From: a virus
Lineage: Duplodnaviria > Heunggongvirae > Uroviricota > Caudoviricetes
Length of the DNA stretch: 15,292 nucleotides
Strand: one strand, 5' to 3'
Virus record (IMG/VR): IMGVR_UViG_2675903366_000018
Under the pieces are notes generated by a model that saw nothing but the letters and a program-made list of their open reading frames with translations, made no database searches and was not told the DNA's origin. This document shows positions 7,070-15,292 of this stretch, piece by piece. The translations under genes and the position numbers were made by a program. How positions within the stretch are numbered: position 1 is the stretch's first letter; every line of letters starts with the position of its first letter.

Positions 7070-8239
7070 CTAGCCAGCTTTCATTTCCAGAATTTTGATG
7101 GCGTTTGAATCCACCACACCACCGCCCAGATATTTATCCGTGTGGACCTTGTAGAATCCGGGTTCAGTAATGTTGTCCGGTCGGGTGCGAATCCCTGTTA
7201 CATGATCAACGATGAAATAACCACGACTGAAATCGCCAACCGCCAGCGGTGCTTTTCCTGCGCCGATGTCCGGCATGGACTCCAGGCAGTAAACAGGACG
7301 ACCAAGCAACATATCCGGCGCACCTTCTTTAAGGCTGTCGCGCCAGATATAATCGCCGTTCTCATTTTTCAGCTTCTGTAGTGTCCCTGCCGTGCCCGAG
7401 TTCATCACCCAGACGGCATTTTTGCGGTATTTCGCTTTCAGCCTGTAGAGAATGTCGATCAGTTCGTCCGCTGTAATGGCGGTTCCACTTGCCGCTATCA
7501 TTTTTTCAATGGTGCCAAAAGCGCGGGTTTTGTCACTGGTCGCTGCACGGGTGTAAGCCATGAAGCCTTTCGGCTTGCCGTTACCGTCGCCATTAACAAA
7601 ATCATCCTCTTCGGTGCTGGCGAACGTGTCGGCAATTTCGGAGGATAACCAGCCCAGAATATCCACCTCTGAAAAATCCAGAATTTCCTGCGTGGTTTTC
7701 GGGTAGGCGTAGATCGGATTCAGCTTGATGGTTACGCGTTCAATTTTCGGGGTGTTGGTTTCGCTGCGCGCGCTGCCTTCTGTGCCTCTTCCTACAGTTG
7801 CGCCGCCAGTGGAAACCAGTTTCTGAAACTCATTTGATTTTGCGGTCTTCACGGTCGCGATCACGCGCATAACACTGTCATCCTGTAGCTGGCGCATGAC
7901 TTCGCGATCAAGCTCAGGAATTACGGTATATCCGCCATCCCTGCCGCTGTCAGTGCTGGTGGATAGTGATCGCACATCTCCGGTTACGATGTAGTTACGC
8001 AATTCATCAGATGATAATTTCCGGATGCCCGTTCCTGGCTTGCTGCGTTCTTCATCAGCCACAGACTCGAGGCGGGAAATTTCTGTGCCGAGGGAATCGG
8101 CTTTTGCACGCAGTTCATCAAACTGTTTGCCCTCGTCATCGTTCAGGCTACGGTTTTCACTGTCGGCTTTTTCCAGCAGGGATCGCATCTGGTTTTTCAG
8201 GGCGTTTTTTTGCTGGCGGAGTTCGATTAATTTCTTCAT
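7070..8239 (-). CDS. Major capsid protein, HK97 fold, with N-terminal coiled-coil (scaffold/delta-like) region
   Basis: 389 aa; the first ~100 residues are heptad-like and rich in E/K/R/L, followed by a capsid-like domain; ATG at 8237-8239. Followed directly by protease and portal genes. Confidence 0.85.
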   Translation of the reverse strand: MKKLIELRQQKNALKNQMRSLLEKADSENRSLNDDEGKQFDELRAKADSLGTEISRLESVADEERSKPGTGIRKLSSDELRNYIVTGDVRSLSTSTDSGRDGGYTVIPELDREVMRQLQDDSVMRVIATVKTAKSNEFQKLVSTGGATVGRGTEGSARSETNTPKIERVTIKLNPIYAYPKTTQEILDFSEVDILGWLSSEIADTFASTEEDDFVNGDGNGKPKGFMAYTRAATSDKTRAFGTIEKMIAASGTAITADELIDILYRLKAKYRKNAVWVMNSGTAGTLQKLKNENGDYIWRDSLKEGAPDMLLGRPVYCLESMPDIGAGKAPLAVGDFSRGYFIVDHVTGIRTRPDNITEPGFYKVHTDKYLGGGVVDSNAIKILEMKAG

Positions 8240-8428
8240 GAAGGTTTTCTCGTATTGGTTAAGATTCAGGACGTGAAACCAACACGGAGGGAGCGCCGCC
8301 CGACACTCTCGGCATCTCGCAGATCAACCCGGCATCGCGCAGGGGTCAGGCGGCATTGTGGCGGCTCACGTCTGAGTGCCACACGCCAACATATACATAA
8401 AAATCAGTATGTAAACATCAGCCAGAAT

Positions 8429-8460
8429 CACCGAACAATCTGGAACAACCACGAACAAAT
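8429..8460. promoter_or_regulatory. CGAACAA direct-repeat array (3 copies, 10-bp phase) ~190-220 bp upstream of the capsid gene; putative regulator binding site for the head/packaging operon
   Basis: CACCGAACAATCTGGAACAACCACGAACAAAT; near-identical to 201-231. Lies in a 275-bp non-coding region upstream of the capsid ATG, flanked by A-tract repeats ACCTGAAAAAAA x2 at 8471-8497. Confidence 0.4.
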
Positions 8461-8513
8461 AATTTACAAAACCTGAAAAAAAGACCTGAAAAAAAATCCA
8501 GGCCTTTATCGCT

Positions 8514-8762
8514 TTATTGTTTCACTGGATCCCGCATTCTGCGTCTTATTTTCCACAGATATTCGATCATCGCTTCCACCTGCTCACGGTTGGTTGCGAA
8601 AATTTCCCCGGTCAGTGAGCTGCGCAGAAAATCATGATGATCCACAACAAACAACGCATCGGAAGAAAGCAGACGGCGATATTTTTTTGCTGTCGTGGTT
8701 TCCAGATCATCAAAACCATGAAACTTTTTATGTTGCTGAACTTCTTCAAATGTCACAGGCAT
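8514..8762 (-). CDS. Hypothetical protein (82 aa)
   Basis: ATG at 8760-8762 preceded by a perfect AGGAGG; the ORF-track start at 8780 is GTG and lacks an RBS. No recognisable family by eye. Confidence 0.5.
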   Translation of the reverse strand: MPVTFEEVQQHKKFHGFDDLETTTAKKYRRLLSSDALFVVDHHDFLRSSLTGEIFATNREQVEAMIEYLWKIRRRMRDPVKQ

Positions 8763-8794: not shown

Positions 8795-9091
8795 TTAATA
8801 ACCGTTATCAATTATCCCTTTTTTTTTCGGGTAGTTCCTGAACATCTCACCGCCAGGTTTCTGTAAGCCCATCCCGGTATGTGTGCGGTTTATGGCCTCT
8901 TTCAGTATTCCGAAATTATCCGGCATGACTGGTGGGCGCGCTGCCTTACGGATACATTCCTCGCGACGCTTTGCCACCTGTTCGCGCTCCTTGTCAGTGC
9001 TCACCAGCCACATAACATCAGCCCAACGTGCCGCCGCTCTCCGGTACAGCCCTTTAGCCTCCAGTTCTTCCGCTTTGCTGTCTTTAATCAT
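8795..9091 (-). CDS. Small transcriptional regulator, PerC/ANR-like (tentative)
   Basis: 98 aa from ATG 9089-9091 (GAGG 6 nt upstream); N-terminal motif AEELEAKGLYRRAAARWADVM resembles PerC/ANR-family small regulators found in enterobacterial prophages. From memory only. Confidence 0.4.
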   Translation of the reverse strand: MIKDSKAEELEAKGLYRRAAARWADVMWLVSTDKEREQVAKRREECIRKAARPPVMPDNFGILKEAINRTHTGMGLQKPGGEMFRNYPKKKGIIDNGY

Positions 9092-9106
9092 GCTGTACCT
9101 CACTGC

Positions 9107-9742: not shown

Positions 9743-11875
9743 TTAATCTTCTGCCTCAGGCTGGAACATCAGCACGTAAAAAACATGCTGCTTCCCCCCA
9801 ATTTTGCCGAGCGCCTTTTTCTTGTAACGGCGATCGTTACCCGCTTCCAGCATTCCGGCAGCACTCAACGCGCGGGCAAAGTGAGACGGATTAAATCCCT
9901 GTGCTATCTCACCCTCAAACACATGCGGGAACGTGTAAAAACGGAACTCGTCATCTTCGTTTCTGATACTCCCCTTTCTGTATCCGGCAAGCTCTTTAAT
10001 CGGTAAATCACGCTCGTCAGAGTTGGGCCAAGGAAGGTATCTGCTGAATCCGAACGACGCTAAAAAAGCCTCTGCCTGTTCAACCATCTGTTTAAACTCC
10101 CTGTTCCCCGTGCCGAACTCCTTCACCCAGGCATTAAAATTATGCTGAATGGCATCGCGGCATTCCTGCTCATCCCAGCCAGTAACATGACCGGAAAGTA
10201 CAAGCGCGGCCTCCAGTATGGCGAATCGTTCCCCCACACGGTGAACCTGTTCGCCGTAGCTCTCCGGTATCAGGTTGCGCCACCGCTCGCGACATGCCCT
10301 TACCGCGTCCTTTGCCTCCTGCTGGTGTTCTGCCAGCCATTTAACCCACTCACGACCTGCCGCCCCGTGATTTTCTGTCCAGGCATCTTTTAACGCGTCT
10401 GCGTGCGCCTTTCCGGTGCTGTATTCGTGAAACTGCGAGGCCTTTTCCATCGGCACGTTAAGCAGACGGACAAGCTGCCCCGCTTTAATTTTTATCCCTT
10501 CCGTTTTGAGGAATGTTTCAACGTCCATTTCTCCGGTGCTGATTGCCACCGTGCGCCAGTGTTTTATCTCCCTGTTGCCGCCGTCCTTCGCCCCCTGTAA
10601 TTTCCCCGAACCGTTAAACAGCGTATAGGCTGACGTGGACACCTCCCGCGCGTTTCCGGCCTGGCCTATTTCATCCAGGGGTAACAGCCCGTCATTATGT
10701 GCTTCGGCCTCGTTGGCGATACCTAACGCCGTTCCGTACCAGGTCAGCCGTTGCGCGTCCGGCTCTCCCCATAAACTGGATGCGATGTTCTGTGTGGTGG
10801 TTTTCCCTGCTGATGACTGTTCGAAAAGATGTACCCCGAAGCCGTCAGCACCCACCAGCCCGATTAATGGTGCTGATAACGATACCGCCACACCCAGCAT
10901 CATGGACGGATTACCACCAGCCAACCGCGCAACGGTATCGCGCCAGCCCTCCGCCGTTCCTGCCTCGGAATAACCATTAACAGCGGCAGTTTTTCCGGTA
11001 AACAGGACTGGCTTTTCGCAATCACCAATGACCGAACCGTCCGGCATGATGTACGCGCCAAAATGCCAGCCCGTTGTTGTGCTTAACTGCCATTCCTCAT
11101 GGTTTCCGCTTAACTGCATCCAGTCAGCCAGGATAGCCCTGTATTTACCGTTGGTTGTCACATTCAGTCCGTGGTCTTTCAGCAGCCGCCAGCCGTCACG
11201 GTCGCCAATGCCCCCACACGGGATCGCCATTGTGATGACTTCATGGTTTGCTGGTTTTTTCCAGCGCATCACGCGGTAATGCTCTTTGCCGATTGTCCCC
11301 GTTCCCAGTAGTTCAAGCGGGGAACATAACCACGTCTCAGGCCGGATAATTTCGCCTGACTGCTTATCCACTTTTGGCGTTACCCAGAAAACACCATCGG
11401 CACGGCTTTCAACGCGGGGCTTTAATTCATCATCACCCGGGCTTGTGGTGGTTTTTTTCTTTACCGGAAGCTTAATTACCAGATCTGCAGAAAGATTCTG
11501 ACGCTCAACGTTCAGATAGCGCCGCCAGTTCTCACATTTCTGACCGTGCATTCCTTCAGGGTAAAAATTCGCATCCTGAATATCTGCCGCCGCCAGCTTC
11601 TGACCGATCTTTTTGGTCTCCACTAAATCCAGTTCTCCGGCCTGGTACAGCCTTACGCGTTTTTTCCCATCCGGAACAATTTTCAGCGCATCAAGTTCGG
11701 CAAGCTGATTTGGCCCAAGCCACACAGGCGGCACATCATCGCCAGATGCGGGGCCGTCCTGCTCCTGCCACTGTTTTGCATGTGCCCACGCATCACTACC
11801 CGCGAAAATAATTACCTCTGTGTCTTTGTGTTTTATTCCGCGTGGTTGTTTTTTTACGTTCGGTGCCAGTTTCAT
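9743..11875 (-). CDS. Replication initiator, primase/helicase-type (Pri-Rep-like), with central P-loop NTPase
   Basis: 710 aa; Walker A GVHLFEQSSAGKTTT and Walker B GLLPLDEIG in the central region; resembles DUF927/primase-associated replication proteins of satellites; ATG at 11873-11875 overlaps the upstream ORF's stop (ATGA). Confidence 0.75.
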   Translation of the reverse strand: MKLAPNVKKQPRGIKHKDTEVIIFAGSDAWAHAKQWQEQDGPASGDDVPPVWLGPNQLAELDALKIVPDGKKRVRLYQAGELDLVETKKIGQKLAAADIQDANFYPEGMHGQKCENWRRYLNVERQNLSADLVIKLPVKKKTTTSPGDDELKPRVESRADGVFWVTPKVDKQSGEIIRPETWLCSPLELLGTGTIGKEHYRVMRWKKPANHEVITMAIPCGGIGDRDGWRLLKDHGLNVTTNGKYRAILADWMQLSGNHEEWQLSTTTGWHFGAYIMPDGSVIGDCEKPVLFTGKTAAVNGYSEAGTAEGWRDTVARLAGGNPSMMLGVAVSLSAPLIGLVGADGFGVHLFEQSSAGKTTTQNIASSLWGEPDAQRLTWYGTALGIANEAEAHNDGLLPLDEIGQAGNAREVSTSAYTLFNGSGKLQGAKDGGNREIKHWRTVAISTGEMDVETFLKTEGIKIKAGQLVRLLNVPMEKASQFHEYSTGKAHADALKDAWTENHGAAGREWVKWLAEHQQEAKDAVRACRERWRNLIPESYGEQVHRVGERFAILEAALVLSGHVTGWDEQECRDAIQHNFNAWVKEFGTGNREFKQMVEQAEAFLASFGFSRYLPWPNSDERDLPIKELAGYRKGSIRNEDDEFRFYTFPHVFEGEIAQGFNPSHFARALSAAGMLEAGNDRRYKKKALGKIGGKQHVFYVLMFQPEAED

Positions 11876-12159
11876 TTCTTACCCCCTGCGACCAGCATTT
11901 CACGGATTTTGCGGATATAGCTTGCTGCACGTTTCTGATTTACGGCTTTACGATGGCCCACCAGCGTGAAATCACGCCGGAACTGATAAACAGGCATCAC
12001 GCAGTCATATTCGTAGCCATCACGGCGGTAAGTGATGCGCCGTTCTGCCACGCCTTTAATCGTTACCATGCCGCCATATTTATCGCGGTAAATATCGCCG
12101 TTCATAAATTCAGGACGAGCGGGGCCGCTGGCGGTAAAGCCAGAATTTTTATTTTTCAT
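11872..12159 (-). CDS. Hypothetical protein (95 aa), translationally coupled to the replication gene
   Basis: ATG at 12157-12159; stop overlaps the pri-rep start; basic, non-repetitive composition. Confidence 0.5.
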   Translation of the reverse strand: MKNKNSGFTASGPARPEFMNGDIYRDKYGGMVTIKGVAERRITYRRDGYEYDCVMPVYQFRRDFTLVGHRKAVNQKRAASYIRKIREMLVAGGKK

Positions 12160-12164
12160 GGTTT

Positions 12165-12392
12165 TTATTCCGCGTTTATTTTTTTATCGTGAATTTCGAT
12201 CGCTTTATTTAATTCGACGATTACCGTATCGAGTAATGAAATAAACGCACCAGCAAGATTAGATTCACGCTCATCTTCCGGCGCATCACTTAAACCATCA
12301 AGCCAGATAAGAAATATTTGCCTCAAACATTCACTGTTAGTCAGTGCGTTTTCTGCATGGCTCATTGATTTAAAATAACGGTCATCATGCAT
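12165..12392 (-). CDS. Hypothetical acidic protein (75 aa)
   Basis: ATG at 12390-12392 preceded by AGGGGG; overlaps the upstream gene's stop by 8 nt (ATGCATGA). Confidence 0.45.
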   Translation of the reverse strand: MHDDRYFKSMSHAENALTNSECLRQIFLIWLDGLSDAPEDERESNLAGAFISLLDTVIVELNKAIEIHDKKINAE

Positions 12393-12588
12393 GGCGCACC
12401 CCCTGACGAATACGGGCAGTAAATACCATCACGCAGCCATCAGGAGATTGCTGGCGAGCTTCCTGTTCGCTGGTGGCCTCGATGGTAATCACGCGCGGTT
12501 GTGTCGTGCTCAGAGCGATAAAACGCCAGATGTATTTATTCAGGTTGTGCGAGTCCCGCCCTTGCGGGTGTGTGGTATGATTTCTCAT
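12385..12588 (-). CDS. Small protein (67 aa), possibly Icd-like (host cell-division inhibitor family) - tentative
   Basis: Start taken at ATG 12586-12588 (GAGG 5 nt upstream); the 97-aa ORF-track version starts at TTG and runs through the operator-like inverted repeat. C-terminal region (QQSPDGCVMVFTARIRQGVRHA) resembles Icd-like proteins of P4-type elements, from memory only. Confidence 0.35.
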   Translation of the reverse strand: MRNHTTHPQGRDSHNLNKYIWRFIALSTTQPRVITIEATSEQEARQQSPDGCVMVFTARIRQGVRHA

Positions 12589-12686
12589 AGCTGCCTCGAT
12601 ACTCTCGTTATCGTTGGTGGTTAGACGCCCCGTATGTGTTTCCGGCACTGCGGGGCGTTGCTCTTTGTATTTCAACAATCCTTTCG

Positions 12687-12766
12687 GTGTGTTTCATGTT
12701 ATGAGCGCATGAAACACACGTCAAGGCTTTTTGTATTTCTTTTTTTGTGTATACTGAAACACACCG
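12687..12766. promoter_or_regulatory. Divergent control region: perfect 12-bp inverted repeat GTGTGTTTCATG-N9-CATGAAACACAC (12687-12719), third half-site TGAAACACACCG (12755-12766) overlapping a -10-like TATACT (12750-12755)
   Basis: Read directly from sequence; lies between the minus-strand small-gene operon and the plus-strand gene starting at 12786 (AGGAG RBS at 12773-12777). Confidence 0.45.
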
Positions 12767-12785
12767 ATGATTAGGAGTTTCAGAA

Positions 12786-13091
12786 ATGGCAACGGCTAAC
12801 AAAAACGCAAAATCACAACTGACAACTGTCAGAGTCCCACTAGATGTTATGCAAGGGATGGAATCCGTTAAGCTGGACGGCGAAAGCAATGCCGGATTTA
12901 TCGTAACCGCCATGCGCGGAGAAATAGCCCGCCGCCAAGCAGAAGGCAGCGGAGAAAATCCCCTTGTGTCGTCACTGGATGCCCTGGCTAAGGTCGAACA
13001 AATCGGCATCAAAGCAGCGGAAGAAATCGGGCAGCTTGTCACCGTTGCACGCGAAGAACTCCAGCGTCGCAAGACCAAAGAACCAGAGTAA
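12786..13091 (+). CDS. Putative DNA-binding regulator (possible ribbon-helix-helix), 101 aa
   Basis: ATG 12786 with AGGAG 8 nt upstream and promoter-like TTGTAT...TATACT; N-terminal TTVRVPLDVMQGMESV fits a beta-strand-then-helix RHH-like start. The antisense 271-aa ORF here is Ser/Cys-rich and judged spurious. Confidence 0.45.
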   Translation: MATANKNAKSQLTTVRVPLDVMQGMESVKLDGESNAGFIVTAMRGEIARRQAEGSGENPLVSSLDALAKVEQIGIKAAEEIGQLVTVAREELQRRKTKEPE

Positions 13092-13133
13092 TCACCATCA
13101 GCGCCGTGGTGTAAGGTATTACGGCGCATTGCT

Positions 13134-13322
13134 ATGCAGGACAACACAATGACCGATAAAGAATTGACCAAAACATTATCACCGGCACGGAAAAGACGGC
13201 GCAGAAAGATAGAGCATGAATCAGAAAGATTCGCGCCATGTGCTTTTGCTCTTGAGAAATTCCTTAAGGAGCACAAGAAAAAGCTATCATTGCAAACCTG
13301 GGAGCTAACCGAATCTGACTGA
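13134..13322 (+). CDS. Hypothetical small basic protein (57-62 aa; RKRRRRK motif)
   Basis: Same strand and 42 nt downstream of the preceding gene; alternative ATG at 13149 has AGGA 8 nt upstream; followed by a strong terminator. Confidence 0.35.
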   Translation: MQDNTMTDKELTKTLSPARKRRRRKIEHESERFAPCAFALEKFLKEHKKKLSLQTWELTESD

Positions 13323-13386
13323 TCACATTGCCCACCAGCCAGCAAATCGCTATGATGTTCGGGCTTATGTTTAGTGTTTTCCCATT

Positions 13387-13415
13387 GGCGACCGCCCCCG
13401 GTCGCCTTTGTTTTA
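13387..13415 (+). terminator. Rho-independent terminator closing the plus-strand two-gene module
   Basis: GGCGACCG-CCCC-CGGTCGCC (8-bp GC-rich stem) followed by TTTGTTTTA; located between the plus module and the convergent alpA 3' end. Confidence 0.55.
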
Positions 13416-13434
13416 TGTGCCATATACTCCCCCT

Positions 13435-13644
13435 TTACGCTGCCTTACCTGAATTAATGCGATCCCGGCTTTTAACCCATTCCATAACCTCGGACAGCAG
13501 CCAACCAACAGAACGACCGCCCAGATTAAGACGTGACGGAAAGCATCCTTTTTTCTCCAGTTCGTAGCGTGTAGTGCGACACACTCCAGTTAACTTACGA
13601 CATTCATCCTCACGGATTACGCGATCTTCATTTATTTCACGCAT
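13435..13644 (-). CDS. alpA: AlpA-family phage transcriptional regulator / excisionase-like HTH protein
   Basis: 69 aa from ATG 13642-13644: MREINEDRVIREDECRKLTGVCRTTRYELEKKGCFPSRLNLGGRSVGWLLSEVMEWVKSR, the AlpA-type HTH pattern. The ORF-track version starts with GTG at 13731 (98 aa) and could be the true start; the HTH position favours the shorter form. Confidence 0.75.
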   Translation of the reverse strand: MREINEDRVIREDECRKLTGVCRTTRYELEKKGCFPSRLNLGGRSVGWLLSEVMEWVKSRDRINSGKAA

Positions 13645-14053
13645 ACAAAAACCTACATAAAAATTACGTATATAAACTTTTCTCTTAGCTGTAGATATAT
13701 GAGATCGGATATTACTTAGATTCTTTTTCACCTCTTAAATTAAAAACACAACCTTGCTAAAGGCTTTGTTCGCTAAGGTTCGTAGAAGCTCGTTAGTGTT
13801 TAAAATCGTGTCACGAGTTTTTAAGCGACGCAACAAAAAATGTCGTCATTTGGCATTACGCTTGAATTATCTCATTAAAAACAAATAGATAAACCATCAG
13901 GTATTGGAACAATCAAGAAATAGCTAATAAGGGTTTAGTAGGGTGCATTTCAATTTTTTCGATGGTTGACAAATAAAAAATTAACGAACTTGACCGATAT
14001 TTAGCGTTTTATTCACGGCTGTAATCTCTTAAAGAAAAAACAGCCGTAATTTG

Positions 14054-15292
14054 TCAAGAATTTTGGGTGTAAATTCGCGGGGTCATAACAACGATTTTTT
14101 CATCATTGTTCTGGAGAAGCTCGAGACGGTCTACCCATAGATTAAGAGCATCACGTTTTGCATCAAGATAACGGGAGTGGTTATAGACTCGCTGCATCCC
14201 TGGCATCTGGTGGGCTGTAAGCTGCTCGACAATATGCGGATCCACGCCTAAATCGTTCAGCATGGTTGTAAATGTGTGCCGGATGTCATGCAACGACCAG
14301 GGGGCTTGATTAATGCGTCTGTGTGCCGTTCTTCCGTACTCTGATACGGATGATTGCCCTTTCAGTTCTCCAAGCAATAAGCCCGTGTGCCTGTTCTTCT
14401 GCACCAGCTTCGTGACGAACGGCAAAATGCTTTCCGGTATTGGCCTGAATATGGCGACCTTCGTTTTGCTGTGCTCCTTCGGTACTGTCCAGAGCATTTC
14501 TTTAAAATCCCACTCCTGCACCTCAGAGCGCCTTAGCTCAGTGGTACGGCATCCAAAAACAATCAGGAGGCGAATTAGGGCGCTGTAGTATGGCGGGAAT
14601 ATTTTGTCATCCAGGGCGCGGAGTAATTCCCCAAGCTCCTTATTTGTTAGTACGCGCTCGCTCACTTCTGCTTTTTTTCCCACATCACCGACAACCATAT
14701 CATCAAGAACGTTGCTGATTGCGTATCGTCGTTTTCGGCAGTACTTAAGCGCCTGTTTGCATACCTGTAGCAAAAATCCGGCTGATACCGGATTACGCTT
14801 AGCAAGCTGGTCAAAACAGGCCAGCCAGTGGCGTAGCTCGCATTTTTCCAGTGGCATAGCGCCAATCTGGCTAATTATGTGTTTATTGATCCGGCTTTTC
14901 AGTGATTCGTAGTCAGTGCGCTTTTCCTTTGCGTACGATTCAAGCCAGTAAGTGAGCGCTTCCTTAACCGTCACGGGGGCTAACGCATCCTGTACAGCAT
15001 GATTAAGTTCATAGCGCGGATTTTTCCCCTCAGCCAGCCAGGCGCGACACTGTGCCGCTTTTTCCCTGGCAGCTTTCAGGCTCAGATCGGGATAATTGCC
15101 CAGCCTCAGACGTTCCGGTGATATCTGCCTACCAGTTCCGGCCCTGTAAGTGAAATACCAGGTTAACAGGCCATTGATTGAATGCCTTACGCTAAGGTTG
15201 CCACCATCATTAAAAAAGGTGCTTTTTGTGGTTGGTGATCCGCTTAATTTTCGTAAAAGAGTGTCGCTAAGTCTATGAATTGCCCTGCTCAT
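14054..15292 (-). CDS. int: Tyrosine site-specific integrase (P4-like family)
   Basis: 412 aa; catalytic-domain motifs GCRTTELRR, HDIRHTF (H-x-x-R) and YNHSRY (catalytic Tyr region); ATG is the last three bases of the window, so upstream attachment site and promoter are not visible. Confidence 0.9.
   Translation of the reverse strand: MSRAIHRLSDTLLRKLSGSPTTKSTFFNDGGNLSVRHSINGLLTWYFTYRAGTGRQISPERLRLGNYPDLSLKAAREKAAQCRAWLAEGKNPRYELNHAVQDALAPVTVKEALTYWLESYAKEKRTDYESLKSRINKHIISQIGAMPLEKCELRHWLACFDQLAKRNPVSAGFLLQVCKQALKYCRKRRYAISNVLDDMVVGDVGKKAEVSERVLTNKELGELLRALDDKIFPPYYSALIRLLIVFGCRTTELRRSEVQEWDFKEMLWTVPKEHSKTKVAIFRPIPESILPFVTKLVQKNRHTGLLLGELKGQSSVSEYGRTAHRRINQAPWSLHDIRHTFTTMLNDLGVDPHIVEQLTAHQMPGMQRVYNHSRYLDAKRDALNLWVDRLELLQNNDEKIVVMTPRIYTQNS

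Follow-up and report, generated by a model that had tools for sequence, protein, structure and literature searches.

An Icd-like gene and a predicted antisense RNA at the front of the replication operon of a capsid-forming satellite of Escherichia coli

The stretch of DNA examined here (IMG/VR record IMGVR_UViG_2675903366_000018; 15,292 nucleotides (nt), hereafter "the window") is a satellite from Escherichia coli and belongs to the capsid-forming type of phage-inducible chromosomal island (PICI), with nearly every gene on the minus strand. Directly upstream of its replication gene lie three small open reading frames (ORFs), the first of which belongs to the Icd/Kil family of host cell division inhibitors. 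The interpretation that we favor, with moderate confidence, is that the three ORFs make up the front of the early (replication) operon, that an antisense RNA acts as a gate on the Icd-like cistron, and that division of the host would be arrested when the island is induced. The protein-coding part of this arrangement is an ordinary, annotated family in a known kind of satellite; the sections that follow deal in turn with the genes, the predicted RNA, the DNA around them, and the alternatives that have to be considered.

Three small genes ahead of the replication gene

ORFs of 67, 75 and 95 amino acids (aa) had been noticed at positions 11872 to 12588, upstream of the replication gene, and these coordinates proved exact, on the minus strand. 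ORF1, the icd-like first cistron (12588 to 12385; 67 aa; basic, pI 10.7), starts with an ATG located after GAGG. ORF2 (12392 to 12165; 75 aa; acidic, pI 4.6; phrog_2196) starts with an ATG after GGGGG and occupies a variable cassette position. ORF3 (12159 to 11872; 95 aa; basic, pI 10.2) is a member of Pfam family PF13973, DUF4222. The replication gene (11875 to 9743) encodes a DUF927 primase/helicase of 710 aa (Pfam DUF927, 157.6 bits; phrog_1139, "DNA primase", E 5.9e-178). The original prediction that the small genes are chained into the initiator gene by overlapping stop and start codons holds for ORF1 and ORF2, which overlap by 8 nt (ATGCATGA), and for ORF3 and the replication gene, which overlap by 4 nt (ATGA) and are thereby coupled in translation. 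It fails between ORF2 and ORF3, which are separated by a gap of 5 nt (TAAAAACCATG).

Among relatives, the ratio of nonsynonymous to synonymous substitution rates (dN/dS) was 0.19 for ORF1, 0.14 for ORF2 and 0.36 for ORF3, values that indicate purifying selection. Off-frames gave ratios of about 1 or more, except for the codon-aligned antisense frame (0.25 and 0.39), which contains stop codons. Altogether, family matches, purifying selection and a recurring layout (described below) indicate that the three small ORFs are real genes and not chance ORFs.

The resemblance of ORF1 to Icd had been proposed earlier, and both a profile search and a pairwise alignment support it. Against the NCBIfam model NF033153 (phage_ICD_like, "host cell division inhibitor Icd-like"), ORF1 scored 68.6 bits (cut-off 25) over model positions 1-48 of 48, while the controls P1 Icd and P4 Kil, the latter a 65-aa ORF taken from the phage record, scored 52.6 and 76.1 bits. 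BLASTP aligned ORF1 with P1 Icd at 18 identical residues out of 50 (36%; pairwise E 1e-8), and the alignment spans the core made of residues 12-51, which experiments have found sufficient for FtsZ binding and filamentation (PMC11897509). P1 Icd binds FtsZ and blocks Z-ring formation, and its overexpression brings viable counts down about 1000-fold (PMC11897509). The motifs IWRF, ExEAR and FTAR are common to ORF1, P1 Icd and P4 Kil, and the Icd core motifs are kept in Escherichia, Edwardsiella, Klebsiella, Morganella and Tenebrionibacter, with identities of 41-70%. Judged by these comparisons, ORF1 is a true member of the Icd/Kil family. The annotation is not new, since proteins with 95-96% identity already carry the name "host cell division inhibitor Icd-like protein" in NCBI. 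By homology with P1 Icd and P4 Kil, we infer that ORF1 should stop host division or growth upon induction of the island, with FtsZ as its putative target.

Matches to phrog_6196 and phrog_1743 would make ORF1 a "transcriptional repressor". This label was rejected as an inherited error that goes back to the obsolete annotation of the P4 cI protein: the P4 record still presents the 137-aa "cI gene product", an obsolete entry, as a repressor, and Kil lies within that ORF. PHROG 6196 and 1743 are Icd/Kil-like and PHROG 6928 is Eta-like, and all of them are labelled "transcriptional repressor"; the label apparently stems from the P4 cI region (8168-8584 of the P4 record), which in reality specifies an RNA.

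Icd-like proteins of E. coli and Edwardsiella carry a 9-residue insertion, QGRDSHNLN, relative to those of P1, P4 and Klebsiella. Inside the insertion, at icd codons 8-12 (12553-12566), the sense strand reads CCCGC-AAGG-GCGGG, a small GC hairpin, which on the plus strand coincides with the -35 region of the antisense promoter predicted in the next section.

ORF2 and ORF3 had both been listed as unknown. ORF2 belongs to a narrow family, and comparison of its predicted structure, a two-helix hairpin with a predicted local distance difference test score (pLDDT) of 90.5, gave no informative match. ORF3 is a DUF4222 protein (87.4 bits; gathering score 27), and therefore belongs to the family of RgdR, a regulator of enterohemorrhagic E. 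coli (EHEC). A search for solved structures related by sequence to DUF4222 found none. An AlphaFold2 model made with 32 sequences has a confident core at residues 20-70 (pLDDT around 90) and contains five strands, a short helix and a basic C-terminal helix, with a Tudor/SH3-like barrel as the predicted fold. RgdR, encoded in EHEC O-island 51, is the sole DUF4222 protein studied: it activates the type III secretion genes of the locus of enterocyte effacement (LEE), needs an RGD tripeptide, and loses activity upon an R20C change (PMC10877973). ORF3 shares the Pfam family with RgdR and differs in the tripeptide, which reads NGD at residues 20-22; across the family, the residue that precedes an almost invariant GD varies (R, N, P, H, L, I or S). 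We consider ORF3 a putative accessory of either replication initiation or transcription, and ORF2 a putative exchangeable accessory gene. A more general suggestion, that small proteins so placed in satellites tend to manipulate the host or the helper, is plausible.

Related loci were collected by protein similarity as well as by a DNA pattern, which yielded 157 distinct loci, 137 of them with complete chains; a scan of the genome collection with a single protein yielded just six loci. The chained layout recurs in the 137 complete chains, and most junctions measure -4, -8, -11, -26, +5 or +6 nt. In every chain surveyed the Icd-like gene comes first; it is never free-standing, and its overlap to the replication operon is 8 or 11 nt. 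At the other end, a DUF4222 gene closes the series of small genes in 124 chains, and the overlap with the replication gene is 4 nt in 102 chains and 19 nt in 28. The slot between the Icd-like and the DUF4222 genes accommodates one to five exchangeable small ORFs, and a member of the ORF2 family is found there in 76 of the 137 chains. The replication gene itself is of four types: DUF927 (about 710 aa), two primase types (about 582-614 aa) and a RepA-type helicase (about 468 aa). The conserved unit is thus "Icd-like ... DUF4222-replication gene", with ORF2 in the cassette slot. What is new here is that the Icd-like and DUF4222 genes bracket a variable cassette ahead of any of four replication genes.

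Two Icd-like domains are found in some relatives, either fused in a single ORF, as in an E. ruysiae locus, or in the form of a second Icd-like ORF of 154-155 aa placed directly after the first.

All four types of replication protein have in common an N-terminal stretch, MKLAPNVK...IIFAG...PPVWLG, within their first 60 residues, and this stretch is the part that overlaps the DUF4222 stop codon. The overlap suggests that DUF4222 and the N-terminal domain form a conserved module to which swappable helicase domains are attached. Since DUF4222 is joined to four different replication genes that share this stretch, a role of ORF3 tied to the replication protein is favored.

A predicted antisense RNA opposite the icd leader

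About 85 nt upstream of the icd ATG are strikingly conserved among elements whose promoter and operator segments differ. Comparative prediction places in this segment a cis-antisense RNA of about 80 nt (12587-12670, plus strand), opposite the 5' untranslated region and the Shine-Dalgarno sequence of icd. Its 5' stem-loop, SL1 (12588-12623), carries the anti-Shine-Dalgarno sequence CCUC. The second, SL2 (12624-12659), is a GC-rich terminator hairpin, and is followed by a U-rich tail that reaches approximately position 12670. A predicted extended -10 promoter (TGGTATGAT; 12573-12581, plus strand) lies within icd codons 3-6.

The -10 hexamer was found at a fixed distance from the icd ATG in 131 distinct instances, as TATGAT in 117, TATAAT in 8, TATATT in 3 and another TA...T sequence in 3 (TATAGT, TATTAT and TATGCT complete the list of forms). 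A TGn motif precedes the hexamer in 116 of them. The box is kept despite the unrelated N-terminal peptides that the Icd-like genes encode at this place, such as MLNHTPTRFKF, MYKYTFLIGKG and MNKHITPVTGR.

The stems of SL1 are invariant, and its 7-nt loop occurs in 27 variants. Pairing statistics were obtained from an alignment of 32 distinct sequences. Standard pairs make up 98.3% of the pair cells on the plus strand, including 100 G·U pairs, and 82.8% on the minus strand, where those G·U pairs would be A·C mismatches. Six pairs of the terminator have changed on both sides, and the observed covariation score was matched by none of 500 shuffles. Folding yielded -37.1 kcal/mol (z -5.08) for the plus strand and -22.5 kcal/mol (z -2.46) for the minus strand. 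R1, a covariance model derived from these aligned sequences, finds exactly one match per PICI-type locus, on the opposite strand and always adjoining the icd start; it also matches loci of four genera outside the training set, with 35-56 bits, and has no match in P1 or P4. On these data an antisense RNA of about 80 nt is strongly predicted, which would extend from the putative promoter to its own terminator.

At the gathering threshold, the RNA matches no Rfam family. A permissive scan gave one model on its strand and span, SymR (RF01809), which aligned over its full length with 12589-12662 (plus strand) at 15.6 bits and E 0.79; no homology to SymR is claimed, as the score is far under the gathering value of 61. 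An RNA of the C4/CI type upstream of icd was also considered and discarded: Rfam RF01695 (clan CL00128) is absent from the window both at the gathering threshold and at E values up to 1, and the same search detected C4 in the controls P1 (68.8 bits) and P4 (74.9 bits). A predicted antisense RNA in place of C4/CI is, in our view, a new element of this kind of locus.

Sequences that match the leader are present in 1573 of 5426 complete E. coli genomes (about 29%), O157:H7 included, with up to six copies per genome; O157:H7 strain PV15-279 carries a leader identical to that of the window. In spite of this frequency, none of the searchable papers assigns the Icd-like gene a role in PICIs. Annotation of a noncoding RNA at the icd leader was found in none of the RefSeq genomes examined, the searchable PICI papers do not mention an antisense RNA at that place, and the sole match in a literal search of papers for the sequence was an unrelated CTX-M PCR primer.

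The upstream leader and the surrounding island

Upstream of the chain lies alpA, the PICI activator gene (13435-13731, minus strand; Pfam Phage_AlpA, 57.6 bits). The interval between alpA and icd contains an ORF of 271 codons (12608-13423, minus strand) in the position of P4 eta: it starts 11 nt past the alpA stop codon, preceded by a strong Shine-Dalgarno sequence (AGGGGGAG); it stops 19 nt short of the icd ATG and is read in a frame that differs from that of icd. On the plus strand, and hence antisense to the long ORF, are a divergent gene of the ylcI/ynfO family (12786-13091; 101 aa; NF041551, 63.2 bits; phrog_6522; dN/dS 0.18) and orf62 (13134-13322; phrog_21027), the latter with a terminator downstream (13387-13406, plus strand). 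An equivalent long frame, open for at least 150 codons (150-411) and in frame into the Icd-like domain, is present in 114 of 146 related loci (78%). The N-terminal part of the long ORF matched no family or domain. Virtually no stop codons interrupt the antisense frame over ylcI and orf62, and two to six are found in the same relative frame over ORF1 and ORF3; this absence of stop codons is the sole unusual feature of the frame antisense to ylcI. The dN/dS ratio was discarded as a test of translation of the long ORF, given that the codon-aligned antisense frame of any gene yields a low value. The long ORF looks like either an analogue of P4 eta, kept open for the transit of ribosomes, or one member of a true antisense-overlapping gene pair.

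A promoter scan detected a sigma-70-like promoter for the icd leader (TTGACG-17-TAACAT; 12724-12696, minus strand), which lies within a perfect inverted repeat of 12 bp (arms, 12708-12719 and 12687-12698). The sequence GAAACACA has four copies in 12635-12763 and none elsewhere in the 15-kb window (0.72 expected), and two of the copies make up the inverted repeat that covers the promoter. Related elements show other element-specific direct or inverted repeats at this place, for instance GCTGACACC, TTNAACACC, GTGCGCACA and GTGGATTCCA. The repeats look like operators of the immunity type, for which the YlcI/YnfO protein is a candidate binder. Around orf62 (13134-13330), some 220 nt are almost invariant in four E. 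coli elements whose flanks on either side of it are not alike, one of them with a different upstream region.

Pfam matches in the window cover the set of genes that defines a capsid-forming PICI: int (14054-15292, truncated by the end of the window), alpA and pri-rep, plus capsid, protease, portal, head-completion, HNH, terS and terL genes that are the island's own, in about 15 kb and without tail genes. Past the replication gene, the order is single-stranded DNA-binding protein, PerC-family regulator, major capsid protein, prohead protease, portal, head completion, HNH, terS and terL. Almost every E. coli genome matches one end of the window at 99% identity or higher, so the host is E. coli. 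The closest relatives of the whole element cover about 80% of the window with about 93% identity, and an annotated relative in strain SaT040 sits between cspD and clpS. EcCIEDL933, other capsid-forming PICIs and islands of the EcCICFT073 type resemble the element in the genes int, alpA, pri-rep, capsid, portal, protease, HNH, terS and terL, and in induction based on AlpA. In the searchable texts that describe PICIs, no Icd-like gene, DUF4222 protein or RNA regulator is mentioned. None of seven window proteins searched against PADLOC defense models gave a match.

The regulator of the PerC family (8795-9103, minus strand; 121.5 bits) shares the island with the DUF4222 protein, and regulators of the LEE virulence island are found in both families: PerC/Pch and EcCIMP1_025 in the first, RgdR in the second.

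A model for silencing and its alternatives

The order of the chain is alpA, long leader ORF, icd-like gene, orf75, DUF4222 gene and primase/helicase gene, and ribosomes would cover the whole transcript, as no gap in the chain exceeds about 20 nt. While the island is silent, the sigma-70-like promoter would produce the icd leader, and the antisense RNA would pair with that leader across the Shine-Dalgarno sequence and block translation of the first cistron. The icd-like gene would thus be a gate cistron whose translation decides whether the replication gene downstream is expressed, as in P1 (c4-icd-ant) and P4 (CI-eta/kil-alpha). The toxic protein would not be made and, since every downstream gene is chained to the blocked first cistron and the C-rich untranslated leader would lie exposed, the whole coupled replication operon would be off. 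Helper infection would then induce AlpA and activate transcription from further upstream; translation of the 271-codon ORF would bring ribosomes as close as 19 nt to the icd ATG, and the two together would override the block. The Icd-like protein may then halt division while the island is replicated and packaged.

Two phage systems with known regulation provide the closest parallels. In the immI operon of P1 (c4 RNA-icd-ant1/2), as in the window, the Icd-family gene comes first and overlaps the next gene by a few nucleotides, and an RNA aimed at the icd ribosome-binding site controls the whole operon, a feature that is predicted in our case. The RNAs are different, however: P1 C4 acts in trans, is processed, and is encoded upstream on the same strand, and the one predicted here is cis-antisense. 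The genes downstream are also different, an antirepressor in P1 and replication genes in the island. The left operon of P4 (vis/orf88-eta/kil with CI RNA-epsilon-orf151-orf106-alpha) has several components in common with the island, namely an AlpA/Vis homologue, a long ORF, a Kil/Icd-like gene, small coupled genes and a primase/helicase. In P4, according to what Forti et al. reportedly described in 1999, Eta is coupled to the alpA homologue and eta translation lets transcription escape immunity. The logic of eta and kil has been summarized elsewhere (PMC10111431). The two operons differ in several respects: Eta has an N-terminal Phage_ASH domain with the CI RNA embedded in it, upstream of kil, while the window has neither Phage_ASH nor CI/C4; the long ORF of the window is frame-broken and antisense to ylcI/ynfO, so that it departs from the in-frame arrangement of eta; and the small genes and the type of helicase are not alike. 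An earlier comparison of PICIs with P4 gave only Int, AlpA and Pri as shared (PMC6092414). The homology that links the Icd-like genes of PICIs with Kil/Eta of P4 goes beyond that comparison and is new.

Several observations speak against the gating model. ORF1 is just 36% identical to P1 Icd and has a 9-residue insertion relative to it, and the residues of P1 Icd that contact FtsZ have been proposed solely from an AlphaFold3 model. The antisense promoter has no recognizable -35, the TG extension is missing in 15 of the 131 variants, and the hairpin is followed by a U-tract with an interruption (UUGCUCUUUGUAUUU). In the window the frame of the long upstream ORF is broken, and read-through into Icd of the kind found in eta is therefore impossible there. 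Finally, ORF2 is missing from almost half of the related chains, which means that the "three genes" are not a fixed unit.

One alternative, which we regard as rather unlikely, is that the module serves mainly for abortive infection or superinfection exclusion: a phage protein would trigger the operon, the Icd-like protein would arrest or kill the cell, and gating of replication would be secondary. The idea finds support in a prophage-encoded cell-death system of strain ECOR61, in which an Icd-like protein and linked genes, a primase among them, cause growth arrest upon a phage trigger; removal of the Icd-like gene abolished the effect (Silas et al., bioRxiv 2023). The 1000-fold loss of viable counts caused by P1 Icd upon overexpression points in the same direction. 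Nevertheless, the ECOR61 result would fit the gating model equally well, as it is also compatible with ordinary induction of a satellite by a helper protein. The ECOR61 protein is set apart, by its description, by a long N-terminal extension like that formed by the in-frame long ORF of most relatives, which is frame-broken in the window. Furthermore, the PADLOC search of window proteins was negative, and in every related satellite the genes are located in the core regulatory and replication module and not in accessory hotspots.

Another explanation, to which we give a low probability, is that the Icd-like gene and the antisense RNA are a type I toxin-antitoxin (addiction) pair that stabilizes the island and exerts no control on the genes downstream. 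Both Icd and Kil are toxic if overproduced. The design is indeed that of SymE/SymR, with a cis-antisense RNA of about 77-80 nt that covers the ribosome-binding site of a harmful small protein and has its promoter within the 5' end of that protein's ORF, features that are predicted in the island, and SymR is the one Rfam model that scored on the right strand and span. The score, as indicated above, is far below threshold, and SymE is unrelated to Icd, so that the resemblance is one of design and not of descent. SymE is a stand-alone gene under SOS control. The toxin gene of the islands is always chained to the replication operon and never alone, and an integrated island would gain little through post-segregational killing.

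It is also conceivable, albeit very improbable, that ORF1 counts solely as a translated leader cistron, whose translation keeps Rho from terminating transcription, and that the ORF1 protein is functionless here. Translation of icd in P1 or of kil/eta in P4 lets transcription continue, and the long frame upstream has stayed open in 78% of relatives even though it encodes no recognizable protein domain. Such an ORF would be a mere spacer, and a spacer would not be expected to retain the Icd core motifs across five genera or to show a dN/dS of 0.19. A last possibility concerns ORF2 and ORF3, which might act on the helper phage or the host through helper derepression as P4 epsilon does, through anti-defense, or through virulence regulation as in RgdR. 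The location of P4 epsilon in the equivalent slot after kil, the one to five exchangeable small ORFs of the cassette, reminiscent of accessory regions, and the activation of LEE genes by RgdR are in line with this view. We find it improbable as well: neither ORF resembles epsilon in sequence, ORF3 has NGD where RgdR needs the arginine of RGD, and the ATGA overlap that links DUF4222 to four replication genes points to a role connected with replication.

If the Icd-like cistron is gated by antisense RNA as the favored model proposes, a testable answer to the question of how PICIs are kept silent would be at hand, together with a mechanistic link between PICIs and the immunity of P1 and P4. Of regulators of Gram-negative PICIs only the activator AlpA is known, established as helper-induced in EcCICFT073, and a global repressor was left unclear in the founding paper (PMC6092414). 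A tentative extension, on which we would not insist, is that enterobacterial PICIs, both classical and capsid-forming, are silenced by an apparently undescribed family of cis-antisense RNAs of about 80 nt that functionally replaces C4/CI and may be the missing negative regulator, and that the loop with its 27 variants sorts the copies in a genome, of which there are up to six, into immunity or incompatibility groups. Moreover, an FtsZ-directed toxin in the core of many islands would bear on filamentation, on abortive infection phenotypes and on the toxicity of island induction.

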